Source: a virus
Length of the DNA: 64,000 nt
IMG/VR virus record: IMGVR_UViG_3300041964_000082
Location: 30,715-94,714 of that record
Strand: one strand, 5' to 3'
Below the pieces are notes generated by a model. The model was not told where the DNA came from. It did not search any database and saw only the letters and a list, made by a program, of their open reading frames with translations. Shown one piece after another: positions 37,382 to 44,283 of this stretch. Position 1 is the stretch's first letter, and the number at the start of each line of letters is the position of its first letter. A program made the translations under genes and the position numbers.

Positions 37382-37473
37382 AGGTTTTAGGGAGGGGGAT
37401 AAGTTGTCTTTTCCCCTTGGCATTGCCTCTAGGGGTAACCCATCGGGTTTTTCTAGAGGCAGCATTCCCTCAC

Positions 37474-39307: not shown

Positions 39308-39835
39308 TGGGCGGGCATAGCCCTTATACTTCGCCCGCAGGATTCCTACAAATCGACCTGACTAAGAGCTTGGCGTAACTGCATGACAGCATTAACCGGA
39401 TCTTCGTAGTAAAGCTGCTCTGAAGCTAAGAAGCGCTCTACCTCGACTTTCAAGACTTCCAATCTGGCAAGCCTTGCGTCAGCATCAACGCCCGATCGAT
39501 CGCTGGATACTTTTAACGTCCGCAGTTGTGCGAGTTCTTCTAGAACGCCTGCAAGCCAACCCGATCGCATTGTCTTTTCTCTTGCAATTTCATCAAATGC
39601 AGTTTCAAGCTCAATTAGGGATGCGTGTGAGACCTCTCCGAATCCACTGGTAAATTCAGCGCTATGTAGCAGATCGCCCACTTTTTCGTACAGGTTCTCA
39701 AACTTGGCAAACATATCCTGCCGCTTCTCTTGGCTGAGCGATCGCAGTTTGTCTATGCCGTTCTGAGAGTCGCCATATTGAGAGCCGGATTCAGTCACAA
39801 GTAAACACCAAGAATTAATGCCTACATTTTATAGG

Positions 39836-41398
39836 TCAACTCTTCTTGGTACATTCTGCATTCGATCTAGATCTCCAACCTGGTATTGGCGTCAACTGCC
39901 GCTGACTAAGTGGAATTGCATTCACATCGATCGTATTAGTATCACTTGGTACGGGCGCAGCCTGTCGCTTGAATTCAGATTCCAACTTGGCGATCTCTTC
40001 TTCAATATCAAACTCATCGTCAAATATTTCGCCTTTTTTCAGCAGCGTTAGCAGTGTTTCTAGGCTGATCTGACTGGCGCTGTGCAAACGGCTAAAGGCA
40101 TCGATCGCTTGTGGCGTCAACTCTGCCACGTCAAAGTCACGATTCACCTGGCAAGTGCCTGCTGGTTGGTTCATATAGGCAGCGTGGAACTCTAGGCACA
40201 GATCGAACGCATCTTGCAGCCCTTGAGCGATCACCGACATAATCGAATCACCCTGGACTCGATCGAGCTTTTTCGCCTCTGCTGATTCGCCTACATTCTT
40301 CTGGCCAACCAGCGTAGACAGCCCCAGCATCGCCATCTGCTGCTCTAGCTTGTCAATCCGGCTATTCAGTCCATCAAATGAGGTGGGCGGTGGTGCAATC
40401 CATTCTGCCCGTCCATCTGGGTTATCAAATACCAGCGCTTCATCTGCACCCACCACGACATCACCTTGATCGGTGTTGTAGCCGTACAAACGAGCTTAGG
40501 GTGAGCAGTGATATGCAAGCTGTGGTTAAGGTCAGAAGATAGCTGGAAGTGATTGATATTCAGATAGGCGACCTCCAGCATCGGCGGACGGGTGACTGAT
40601 TCTCGCTTTCTTGTCCGTATAGATAACGTGAATGGAATGTAGGGCAGTGATAGAAAACCATCGTCCCCCACCTGCATCCAATTACCGTCAATCTCTGAAA
40701 GAGTCGATAGCGGCAGCGCCCCTCAAACAAGTCGTAAACCTTGATCCGCTCGACTTCTGCCTCACCAAACTCTCCAGAAGGCTCGATCGAGTTTTCGCGA
40801 TCCTCAATTGAGTGAATACGCGTCCGATTGCCAATCGTGCTATAGCGCCATCCAATAATCTCAGGTGCGGTGTAATGCACCCAGTAAGGGCGATAGCCTC
40901 TTTCCACCTCATCGGCACGAGTGCGAACGTCTCCTCTTCAACCTTGGGATAATTCACAAAGATCCCGGTGTAGCCAAAGTCGATCGCTGCCTCAAACACC
41001 TCACGCGCAAAGCTGTTGAGGTCGTCTCCCAGCAGGTTGATATTATCGAGGTGAGACTCGATCGCAGGCACTACGTCCTGGAGTGCGATCGGCTTGCGCA
41101 AGACCATCCCAACTACGCCACGCACTAAGCGGACATACCAAGGCGCAAAGCACGATCGCCCTAGCCTGCGTCCATAGGCGTCCTCTCGCTCGAAAGGTTC
41201 GTGAGGCAGAAACGCTTTGCCACCCTTGCGGATGTCGGGAGTACCGCCCTTGACGGACTTGATCACCTCCCACCAAGGCCGCATCTGTTCGTAGGCATTG
41301 CAAGGCGCATCTACCCCATGTGTCGAGGGTAGAGGCGCGGTTCTGGCATCAGGTAGCGGAGTGAGTTTACTTCGCTCGGCAATAAAGTTATAGGTCAT
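39836..41398 (-). CDS. Portal protein (DUF4055-like; frameshifted)
   Basis: E..DAY.RRL.R, RPYWVHY...IIGWR, PPMLEVAYLNINHFQ, ESAEAKKLDR; follows TerL. Confidence 0.85.
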
Positions 41399-41436
41399 CA
41401 GCAGGGGCGATCGCTGCTGTGAGCGTTCCTACTGAG

Positions 41437-43784
41437 TTAGTAGAGTTGAATTCCTGATCTGCGGATAGCTGTAGAAGTGTTGCGAATCAAGGGTTCCAGT
41501 CCGTATCTGGCAGAGTCTAGGCAGTTATGGACTAGAACGCCATTAGCAAAAAACTCGTGTTGATCTTCGATCGTCAAGTCATACACTTTTTCTGCGACGC
41601 GAGTGCTTGAGACGATTTGCACACGATCGGCTACAAGTTTCAGTTTTGGAGTATTTGTTTGCTCTAAAAGTGATGCTGCAAATTGGGCATACAGCGTCGA
41701 TGTCATCAATTCCGCTATCTCTTCTCCATTTTGACTTGCAAGCGTTTGAGCAGAATCTAGATTGAGTGCCGCATGCGTCTGATTCAAATGATTTGCTGCA
41801 GCAATCGCAAACTCTTTCAATTGACACTCGGTTCTCTTTTGAGAAATTCTTAGCCAGTTTTGCGTGAAGTTTTTTGCCTTCTTCTGAGGAGTGCCACTGC
41901 CTTGTGAGCGGTCGAATGCGATCAAGATGGGCAAGCTGCTGCTCTTTGTTTTCTTGAATCCATTTACGCGCATGATGCGACATATGCTCGGTGACAGAAA
42001 TACACTCAAAATTTTCGAGATCGTTGTTGTCTGTGTCGCCATCTTTGTGATGGATATGATGCCCTTCTGGAATTGCTCCAAAATTGCCAACCCAGATTTG
42101 TCTGTGCAGATACCATTCATGTCCTGCAAGATGCGCTGCTGTTGACTTGTAATAGACGCGATCGTTTCTGCGTTCTGAATCGGGGTATCGCGTGTAAACA
42201 AATCCTTTGTATGTGATTTGCGCTCTTTGGTTGGTTGTTCTTCTGGGCATAGTTCGTTTGCTTCCAGAGTCAATACCTTATCATTATATCGCAGTGCATC
42301 GACTCTAACGAAACCACGCTGTGTAAGGATTTCATGATTTTCGGTAGCTTCAAATTGCTTGCCGAATTTGGTTTTTACTGTAAAGACTGTACGATTTGAA
42401 TCTGTTGCACCTGACCATAAGACGCGCTTAAAGCCAGCACGAGTTAAAACCTTTTCTCCAACTTGTATTTCTTCAATTGGGCGATCGCCTTTGTCGGTTG
42501 TAATTAATGTCCCAGCCGCCAAGCAATGATTGTGTGCATCCACAACGATCGGCAGCACATCACCCGTCAATCGATCGACCTTGTAGGAATAGAGTCGCGC
42601 TTCCTCAATCGTGTTCTTGCAGCGTGGATGGATGATGATCTTGTCATAGCTGCGCAAATGAGCAATGCCATCCTCAACAGACCCAGCACCCTTAGAGACA
42701 GCGACAATCTTGGGGATGCCATGCCGCTTTAGGTAAGAAATGGATTCAGGACGGGCATTGTCTGCGCGAACTGTGTAGAGGTGGCAGTCGGGTATGTCTA
42801 GCTTCCAGCGATCGGCTGTGTGATCAAGCTCTAAACCCACAGCGTAGGATTCGCGTTCAACATGGAGACAGCGATCGTGTATCCACAGCTTGATTAGCAC
42901 GGTCGGGTCTTGAGCAAATCCAAAGTCTGCGCCAAGGTAGGGGCCATCCCATCCAGCCTTGACCTGCACGTCTCCATTAACAGTAGGTTCATAGGGGCTA
43001 AATTCATCTACAAACCACTTGCCATTGAGAATCTGAGCATCTGACTTGATGTTGTAGTGCCCCATCCAAATATGCAAATACGCTTGCATGTCCTGCTTGC
43101 GGGCGGTGTTGGCAAGCGCGATCGCTTCCTCGCTAATAAATGGGTTATCGGTGTAATTGACATTGACCAGAATCGTGCCATCAGGAAGCCCTGACTCACC
43201 CCTGAAGAAGCGATCGACAGGGTTCTCAGGCTGATCAGGGTTCCAGCTAAACCAAATCTCAGAACCAGGCTTACGGATAGTTGGCAGCAACAGATCGATC
43301 GATCGTTGGCTGAGGTTCTGCGCTTCTTCTGCCCAAACAATATCGATGCCTTCTAAACCTTTCACCGAGTCGGCTGTGTGGTCTTGCATCCCCTGGAAGA
43401 TAATGAAGCCGTCGCCCTGCGTCGATCGCACCTCTCCCACCATTTCACGGACTAAATGCTTAACGCCAAAGGATCTGATCTTGTCTTCAATCAGGCTTTA
43501 GCAGAATACTTGAGAGACTTTTGAATCTCCCGAATGCAGACAATCCGCTAGGTCAGGATTCTCGATAAACCGTTGACAATCTGCTCACCAAAGAAGTGAG
43601 ACTTGCCGCCCGATCGCCCACCATATGCGCCTTTGTAGCGAGACTTTGCAAGTAGAGGTTTTGCCCAATCTGGAACGGCAGCAATTTGATCAAGGTTGCG
43701 AACTAGCGATCGCCTTCTTCTCTCCTGCTCAGCCTTTGCCCTCAGTTGCAGGCTAGTTAAGGATGTTGCCGGGTTCGACGCCAC
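41437..43784 (-). CDS. terL: Terminase large subunit (PBSX family) containing an intein; frameshift near 43.5 kb
   Basis: YGGRSGGKSH Walker A, WAEEAQ Walker B, WNP, GADFGF..DP, D..NH|intein|CLDSARY. Confidence 0.93.
41524..42525 (-). other. Intein (334 aa) in the TerL nuclease domain
   Basis: Block A CLAAGTLITT, block B TENHEI, blocks F/G VYDLTIEDQHEFFANGVLVHN|C. Confidence 0.93.
41579..42250 (-). CDS. HNH homing endonuclease with Zn-finger repeats, nested out of frame inside the intein
   Basis: YLHRQIW...GAIPEGHHIHHKDGDTDNNDLENFECI...H, then two CxxC...CS..C units; has its own ATG and TGA. Confidence 0.88.
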   Translation of the reverse strand: MPRRTTNQRAQITYKGFVYTRYPDSERRNDRVYYKSTAAHLAGHEWYLHRQIWVGNFGAIPEGHHIHHKDGDTDNNDLENFECISVTEHMSHHARKWIQENKEQQLAHLDRIRPLTRQWHSSEEGKKLHAKLAKNFSKENRVSIERVCDCCSKSFESDACGTQSRFCSNACKSKWRRDSGIDDIDAVCPICSITFRANKYSKTETCSRSCANRLKHSRRRKSV

Positions 43785-44283
43785 TGGCGATCGCTTCGAG
43801 TTCTTCATCGCTGAGCGTGGCAAGATCGATGCTGACGTTTACTTCTTTGCGATCGGTGCTGAGTCCCATTGCCAAGCGCCTCAGTATTGCGTTGCAGCGT
43901 TTCACCCAAGAGACTAGACCTCTTTCGCGTCTTTGATCTTCAGGTCTAACAGTCACGTCGCGCCGCCCTGGCAGATCAAGGGATGTGCAGGCTTTTGCCA
44001 TCTGAAGATGAAAGGGGTGATTACTTCGGCAGCATCGATCAATGATGAGGTTTGCGCCGACTCGCGCTTTGAGCAGCAACTGCACGTTCGCGCAACCCTG
44101 GTTGCGGATTGGTTCCCTAAAAACTTTGCCGATGTCAACCCAGGGACTCAACCATAGAGCGCTTTTTGATAGTGTGACCTTGGGCATTTGGTTGACTTGC
44201 AGATATGAAAACGTCACCGAGTATCACCACTCACGTACTTCATGTCATCGCAAATACTCCCAATCGATCGCAGTTCGTGCCAT
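43753..44283 (-). CDS. terS: Terminase small subunit (heavily frameshifted)
   Basis: MARTAIDWEYL... start; C-terminal DLATLSDEELEAIASG; directly upstream of TerL. Confidence 0.6.

Follow-up and report, generated by a model that had tools for sequence, protein, structure and literature searches.

Canonical inteins carry their endonuclease in frame between the splicing blocks. What, then, is to be made of an intein whose nuclease is encoded in a different reading frame of the same DNA? The locus that raises this question is a gene for the large terminase subunit (terL) in a stretch of 64,000 nucleotides (hereafter the window, meaning the whole stretch), which is part of a 94.7-kb IMG/VR virus record (IMGVR_UViG_3300041964_000082; 51% G+C). 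The gene lies on the minus strand, as do its parts and the nested gene described below. It contains an intein, and within that intein, out of frame with terL, lies a complete gene for an HNH endonuclease. An earlier note, written by a model from the letters alone, took the pair for a dual-coding selfish element. Much of this reading has held, as both frames are kept open and the HNH frame is under selection in a related lineage (L004), whereas the arrangement as such turned out to have precedents. The locus is probably a composite selfish element in terL of a cyanobacterial phage or prophage, consisting of an intein and a complete out-of-frame HNH gene.

The main open reading frame (ORF) of terL occupies positions 41437-43443 and encodes 668 amino acids from its first ATG. 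It matches Terminase_3 (E=3.8e-17), Terminase_3C (E=5.3e-12), TIGR01547 and several intein models, and it comprises the end of the ATPase domain, the nuclease domain, the intein and the C-extein. The terL frame is continuous, with no stop codon from 43497 to 41440 (the stop-to-stop open stretch is 41440-43497). The N-extein part of this ORF (42526-43443) ends in V-V-D-A-H-N-H. It is followed by the intein (41524-42525), whose 334 residues run from Cys1 to a terminal His-Asn, and by the C-extein with the stop codon (41437-41523), which supplies the +1 residue Cys and reads C-L-D-S-A-R-Y-G at its start, matching the x-D-A-x-R-Y-A-L motif of intein-less relatives. The insertion point is in the terL nuclease domain, between N-H and x-D-A-x-R-Y of a conserved motif. 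An intein of 334 residues, beginning with C-L-A-A-G-T and ending with V-H-N before Cys, is what had been read from the letters, and these borders agree with the profile matches, all of which are above their cut-offs: Hint_2 scores 43.4 bits (cut-off 28.4), TIGR01445 29.2 (24.5) and TIGR01443 30.9 (15.6), with Intein_splicing matching as well. In intein alignment A2, residues C1, T61, H64 and N334 are invariant.

The two ends of the intein frame and its middle behave very differently in structure prediction. The N-terminal splicing domain (42253-42525, residues 1-91) contains blocks A and B with T-E-N-H, and the C-terminal splicing region (41524-41649, approximately residues 293-334) contains blocks F and G (V-Y-D-L-T-I-E ... 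F-A-N-G-V-L-V-H-N) and the TIGR01443 match. The AlphaFold model is confident for residues 1-90 and 293-334 (predicted local distance difference test scores, pLDDT, of 84-95 and 86-93, respectively), but not for the linker between them (41650-42252, approximately residues 92-292; pLDDT 31-55). The linker is free of stops and is read in the +1 frame of the HNH gene. A profile scan detected no nuclease domain in the intein frame and no Pfam domain in the linker, which bears out the earlier remark that the middle of this frame is devoid of a nuclease motif. What appears as conservation of the linker in alignment A2 reflects the conserved motifs of HNH, seen in a frame displaced by one base. The confident HINT fold of the two ends indirectly supports the prediction that the intein is capable of protein splicing.

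The nested HNH gene spans 41579-42250, with its ATG at 42250-42248 and its TGA at 41581-41579, and encodes 223 amino acids. As (43443-42250) mod 3 = 2, it is in the -1 frame of terL ('frame 3'). The TGA is found about 20 codons upstream of the intein end, where the K-V-Y-D-L block begins; the first part of the C-terminal splicing region, a region that all nested loci conserve, and the last part of the HNH gene overlap. The protein matches HNH_3 (PF13392; 51.1 bits, cut-off 24.8, E=1e-13) and phrog_15471, 'HNH endonuclease' (E=1.4e-36). At E<=0.1, HNH_3 was the sole nuclease family matched by this ORF, and Endonuclease_7 was not among the matches. The catalytic core (41981-42112, residues 47-90) contains the invariant residues H49, H67, H68, D70, N75, N76 and H89. 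It is followed by two zinc ribbons, at 41738-41809 (C148, C151, C167 and C171, all invariant) and at 41621-41689 (C188, C191, C206 and C210, all invariant), both of which show weak YacG-like structural matches.

A search for homologs returned 257 proteins in the searched length range. The best 120 are nearly all 198-261 residues long and 38-49% identical to the window protein, mostly at about 90% coverage. When the latter is aligned with 20 homologs, the alignment runs from end to end, the start and stop of the window protein are within a few residues of the others, and all 28 family-invariant residues, including the catalytic His/Asn set and the eight zinc-ribbon cysteines, are retained. As the start, stop and length match those of relatives of free-standing size, the ORF represents a whole gene. 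Everything that the earlier note had ascribed to it (a complete 223-residue ORF in the -1 frame with its own ATG, a TGA inside block F, an HNH core and zinc-finger repeats) was located. The AlphaFold model of the HNH frame has a mean pLDDT of 91. Its closest solved relative is the homing nuclease I-HmuI (1u3e), although the matches are modest: E=0.0055 for the profile, over the catalytic core, and a VIA-align Z of 5.5 over 112 residues. Foldseek returned nothing from the PDB at E<=0.001 for this model, and I-HmuI was the top match at E=0.09. T4-type genes labeled 'intron-like/homing endonuclease' are sequence relatives of the HNH protein, and a paralog search identified no second copy of the HNH gene in the genome.

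Could both frames be open by accident? The third frame contains 14 stops over the HNH stretch. In the +1 frame of other long ORFs of the genome, the density of stops is 0.0425 per codon, which translates to about 9.5 stops expected over 223 codons. If the HNH protein is re-encoded with the codon usage of the genome, the mean is 4.2 stops and P(0)=0.0036. The openness of both frames, each with 0 stops over the 223 codons as originally counted, exceeds chance. The codons of the family show how it is achieved. NTA codons make up 1.5% of nested genes versus 5.2% of free-standing ones, and NTG codons 2.6% versus 4.0%. The contexts that create a stop in the intein frame, namely NTA before a purine or NTG before A, do not occur even once in 6875 codons of nested genes, whereas about 1.65 per 100 codons are expected from the genes' own content; in free-standing genes, these contexts occur at their own expectation. 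Because terL is under selection to keep the intein frame free of stops, the HNH gene avoids NTA before a purine and NTG before A.

The window element has no close relative (the best HNH identity is 49%), and we therefore turned to the L004 lineage (24 loci, 18 haplotypes) for the check on purifying selection that the earlier note had suggested. In the L004 overlap, 39 of the 67 variable sites are third positions of HNH codons, and the ratio of synonymous to non-synonymous changes is 42:25 in the HNH frame but 15:52 in the intein frame. Upstream, in the extein, third positions of the host gene account for 316 of the 397 variable sites. These counts indicate that in this lineage the nuclease is under purifying selection and that the main constraint on the linker in the intein frame is to remain free of stops.

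The same arrangement recurs in many relatives. In IMG/VR, 37 of the 39 loci with HNH homologs (29-41% identity, about 12 lineages) are nested in a +1-frame ORF that extends far beyond the HNH gene. In prokaryote genome assemblies, 15 of 44 loci are nested and have 0 stops in the +1 frame, whereas the other 29 are free-standing and have 4-25 stops there. The nested pair is also present in cultured phages (Acinetobacter phage Highwayman, Tetrasphaera phage TJE1 and Clostridium phage phiCDHM19), and free-standing members are found upstream of terS in Acinetobacter phage BP10 and between terL and the portal gene in Pseudomonas phage PAE1. The nested pair is likewise carried by L102 and L097, both terL relatives of the window; since the peptide-pattern scan missed them, the counts of nested loci are to be taken as minimum values. 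Without exception, the nested loci have the intein in the +1 frame relative to HNH and 0 stops in that frame, so the interrupted linker frames that the earlier note had thought conceivable in homologs are a property of the free-standing loci. All host ORFs that were scanned and could be assigned are large terminases, and all of them contain an intein. The nested HNH gene starts 45-125 codons after the intein Cys1 (mostly 70-95) and stops 12-26 codons before the final Asn. Nesting is retained across HNH divergence down to about 30% identity, and the hosts of the nested family are phages of many bacterial phyla.

Several individual loci deserve mention. Gene callers usually report either terL alone or HNH alone at such loci. 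In L030 (2977-3664), the nested HNH frame contains a stop while the terL/intein frame is open, which looks like a decaying nuclease in a still-constrained intein. The terL genes of L039 (2-4633) and L022 (284-3856) contain two inteins each; in L039, one is a canonical intein with an in-frame LAGLIDADG nuclease and the other, located in the ATPase domain, is overprinted by HNH. A search for the in-frame form among longer proteins, which is weak evidence for its absence, produced a single case, P0121. In this protein of 738 residues, the terL N-extein, the N-terminal part of the intein and HNH are joined in a single frame that terminates at the HNH stop. It may represent a copy with a frameshift, a gene that is broken or a transition towards a split intein.

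Is the element mobile? Of 80 loci retained as terL relatives of the window (identity up to 57%), we examined the 26 that match best. In 24 of these 26, the site is free of the intein and reads N-H followed by x-[I/W]-D-A-x-R-Y-A-L. The insertion site in L102 is that of the window. In L097 (3880-4990) and Highwayman (L041), whose terL genes otherwise resemble that of the window, the element is inserted at a second site, which follows Y-W/I-D-A and is located four residues downstream. Element-free alleles are also present in the habitat. We compared the window with short-read contigs that represent related strains or populations accounting for small shares of biocrust sequencing runs. Loose ends of these contigs at 42535 and 41502 run straight from the N-extein into the C-extein, and thus intein-less terL alleles exist in related biocrust populations. 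The reads across the empty site are, approximately, D-A-S-N-H-V-W-D-S-A-R and N-H-L-I-D-C-A-R-Y. The summed contig depth is greater over the exteins than over the intein, and differences between the window and the contigs in the N-extein are mostly in third codon positions.

When 58 HNH proteins are placed on a tree, the nested and free forms are intermingled, and at least 7 changes between them are needed, at least 2 of which are forced by well-supported branches. The nearest neighbors of the window protein are those of Highwayman (nested) and BP10 (free). As the tree is unrooted and quick, we claim no direction of change. Pairwise identities of HNH proteins, splicing domains and extein flanks correlate at 0.45-0.59, a range that does not separate co-transfer from shared phage ancestry.

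Taken together, these observations suggest the following scheme. Ribosomes translating terL would read through the linker, and the two HINT halves would fold together and splice out to leave an active TerL. On the same late mRNA, other ribosomes would initiate at the internal ATG and produce a free HNH protein of about 26 kDa. The targets of this protein may be the intein-less terL alleles that co-infecting relatives carry; after a cut or nick in these, recombinational repair would copy the intein and the HNH gene together. The overlap would be maintained from two sides, with selection on terL keeping the intein frame free of stops and selection on the nuclease shaping the protein in the other frame.

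Translation of HNH from an internal start on the terL mRNA appears to be the most economical possibility. Nearly all nested ORFs have a start codon, mostly ATG, near the normal N-terminus of the family. Of 31 nested lineages, 12 have a Shine-Dalgarno-like 4-mer ahead of the HNH start, compared with a background of 16% in host ORFs and with 21 of 27 free-standing genes, and several Bacteroidota-associated lineages have A-rich leaders in place of such a motif. On a separate matter, the motif RGGAAYNCT, which has been proposed as a late promoter, matches the window 12 times (e.g. at 41422-41430, 39339-39347 and 37461-37469) versus 7.3 expected; as 7 of 100 shuffles reach 12, this count is not significant.

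The quality of the record has to be considered alongside this scheme. Many genes in the window are broken into chains of overlapping ORF fragments on the same strand, and the portal gene (39836-41398) is fragmented in the same way. The terL gene has its own break. A detached N-terminal piece (43548-43823) with the Walker A motif G-G-R-S-G-G-K-S is separated from the main ORF, first by a TAG (position 43550) and then by a frameshift (near 43497). Relative to the related contigs, the window has three 1-nt indels here, at 43496/7, 43548/9 and 43572, all within 80 bp, and these explain the broken N-terminus. Indels between the window and the contigs are confined to these three positions, at which the contigs of two related strains differ from the window, making the window the odd one out. 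The break is due to either an assembly error or a decaying copy. With genes split throughout and three indels in the terL N-terminus, the description of this sequence as full of indels was apt, and gene-level interpretations elsewhere in the window need care because of them. Nevertheless, comparative controls make it possible to read even such a noisy record correctly. As to the source, the window contains 115 copies of the octamer GCGATCGC, the HIP1 element of cyanobacterial genomes, and the public runs that share words with the window are biocrust and soil metagenomes only, with no RNA run among those listed. The window likely derives from a phage or prophage of a biocrust cyanobacterium.

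Several points weigh against the interpretation of the locus as a working intein with a working out-of-frame nuclease gene. The expression of HNH, the splicing of the intein and its homing are inferred from sequence, and the site-specific cleavage of the intein-less allele is likewise approached indirectly, through comparison of alleles. A sequence search revealed no clear Shine-Dalgarno motif upstream of the internal ATG in the window. A promoter and terminator scan detected no sigma-70-like or other promoter-like site on the minus strand upstream of the HNH start, and there is no copy of RGGAAYNCT upstream of the internal ATG or anywhere inside the intein. The evidence for selection comes from the L004 lineage, which is only about 40% identical to the window element. 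The record is rich in indels and its terL N-terminus is broken, so that this copy may represent a poor assembly or a decaying prophage. Two intervals, 41568-41779 and 42213-42233, are devoid of independent read cover. Finally, the free-standing relatives in BP10 and PAE1 adjoin terS or terL, a location that would also suit a function in packaging.

Two alternatives survive best, although we consider each of them unlikely. In one, the nested HNH gene is a relic that is no longer expressed or active, the locus is a mini-intein with a long junk linker, and the HNH frame is open only owing to a recent insertion. The window's lack of obvious start signals and its possible origin from a decaying prophage are in agreement with this explanation, and the L030 locus, where the HNH frame gained a stop under an open host frame, demonstrates that decay does occur. 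However, a relic is difficult to reconcile with the intact set of 28 family-invariant residues, with the absence of stops from the HNH ORF in a record that breaks many other genes, with purifying selection on the HNH frame in the sampled L004 lineage, and with the persistence of the nested state down to about 30% HNH identity.

In the other, which we regard as about equally improbable, HNH would, by analogy with the terminase-associated HNH proteins of HK97-type phages, be an accessory nuclease of the terminase that aids packaging and not a homing enzyme. The same idea was raised for a brucellaphage in PMC4422536, and the terminase-adjacent genes of BP10 and PAE1 fit it. However, the element occurs sporadically, the intein and its nested HNH being absent from 24 of the 26 examined terL relatives, and intein-less alleles coexist in the same habitat. 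Free-standing homing genes typically adjoin the conserved gene that they target, and the adjacency to terminase genes fits this usual placement equally. Furthermore, I-HmuI, the closest relative with a solved structure, is a homing nuclease, and the related T4-type genes are labeled as homing endonucleases.

A programmed -1 frameshift, located towards the end of the N-terminal splicing domain, would fuse the N-extein and the N-terminal part of the intein to HNH and dispense with an internal start, but this is very improbable. P0121 has exactly this fused form, down to its end at the HNH stop, but it stands alone among several hundred relatives and is possibly the product of an indel or a broken gene, whereas nearly all nested ORFs open with a start codon near the family N-terminus; no slippery site was noticed, although no dedicated search for one was made.

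The weakest explanation, in which a canonical in-frame intein was turned into the present arrangement by two compensating indel errors near 42250 and 41580, draws on the abundance of indels in the record, on the three that lie within 80 bp of each other in the terL N-terminus and on the two uncovered intervals, but it is nearly refuted, because the intein frame would then be open over 223 codons by chance only (P of about 0.004 or less), the HNH ATG and TGA coincide with the ends of homologs of free-standing size, independent short-read contigs are gap-free over 42234-42610, 42020-42212 and 41780-41993, more than 30 distinct and divergent nested sequences from higher-quality assemblies and cultured phages have the same out-of-frame layout, and the in-frame form was found only once among longer proteins. 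Compensating indels were the very possibility that the earlier note had raised against itself; the completeness of the HNH gene, the gap-free contigs and the recurrent nesting speak against it, and it retains some room only in 41568-41779 and 42213-42233.

The composite selfish element can also be viewed on a broader scale. The gene for the HNH_3 nuclease with two zinc ribbons and the intein may constitute one old mobile unit, which has spread through terL across many phyla in a fixed -1 phase while repeatedly shedding or recruiting free-standing HNH genes next to the terminase genes. This is a tentative proposal, to which we give somewhat less than even credence. The fixed phase would follow from codon structure, as a gene can clear its +1 frame of stops just by avoiding NTA before a purine and NTG before A. 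If the proposal is correct, the family is a large natural record of homing genes and inteins joining and parting.

How does the window element compare with known systems? One close counterpart is the terL intein of brucellaphages (Perisivirus Tb/Pr; PMC4422536, 2015; GenBank NC_019446), which also contains a nested out-of-frame HNH gene. The GenBank entry of Brucella phage Tb annotates terL with 'intein present' and a nested HNH gene on the same strand. Both systems have a continuous terL frame, an intein and, inside it, a separate same-strand HNH gene with zinc ribbons, which encodes about 228 residues in the brucellaphage. However, the brucellaphage nuclease belongs to PF01844 and not to PF13392, its zinc ribbons precede the HNH core instead of following it, the relative frame is different ((3170-2347) mod 3 = 1 versus 2 in the window), and the insertion site is before the C-terminal part of the ATPase domain. 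The similarity of the Tb HNH protein (L170:2171-2857) to that of the window is local, being restricted to the zinc ribbons (E=2e-4), and hints at shared DNA-binding modules or convergence.

A second group comprises actinophage inteins, many of them in terL, in which an endonuclease VII-like gene occupies 'frame 3' (Gosselin et al., bioRxiv 10.1101/2025.01.02.630785); the authors propose that inteins were invaded by free-standing homing genes. As in the window, the nuclease gene is located on the same strand between the splicing blocks, the middle of the intein frame has no fold, and the nuclease is related to free-standing phage nucleases (BP10, PAE1 and the 29 free-standing assembly loci in the case of the window). 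The nuclease itself is different, as it is endonuclease VII-like (IPR004211 / PF02945) in the actinophages and consists of HNH_3 and two zinc ribbons in the window. Moreover, the hosts of the window family span many bacterial phyla, and among the tblastn matches and leading organism names listed there were no Mycobacterium or Gordonia phages.

An overlapping nuclease frame is also known outside of terminases. The cyanobacterial dnaX intein contains an out-of-frame LAGLIDADG gene (Gorbalenya 1998, as described in preprints that cite it), and for this intein purifying selection on the nuclease frame together with relaxed constraint on the intein frame in the overlap has been described (Phillips et al., bioRxiv 10.64898/2026.09.14.751524). 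Its overlapping frame thus encodes a homing enzyme, and the pattern of selection is that of the L004 lineage. On the other hand, dnaX is a cellular gene, the nuclease is of the LAGLIDADG type, and the accounts of its frame relation and strand differ between the two preprints. In the ShiLan-type arrangement (Arsenault et al., PMC11855218), HNH genes with their own start and stop are hidden out of frame in phage methylase genes that are kept open. There is no intein in these genes and the insertion stays in the host protein, whereas the window element has conserved splicing domains.

With canonical bifunctional inteins, the window element shares the placement of the nuclease between blocks B and F and, presumably, the division of labor in which splicing rescues the host protein and the nuclease drives spread; the nuclease is not, however, fused in frame. 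From 'fractured genes', which combine split inteins with a free-standing homing gene (Dassa et al. 2009, PMC2677866), it differs in that terL is not divided into two genes. The window element is a contiguous intermediate between these two states and a further case of a documented, non-canonical kind of intein with a same-strand, out-of-frame homing gene, to which it adds a cyanobacterial, biocrust-associated instance. It illustrates how a single piece of DNA can accommodate both protein splicing and DNA homing while the two functions remain unfused. As far as the literature compared here shows, what goes beyond the cited papers is the nuclease family (HNH_3 with two zinc ribbons), its breadth and the clean contrast between its nested and free-standing forms, and these two forms of one nuclease family provide a comparative set for testing the idea that inteins are splicing domains later invaded by homing genes.

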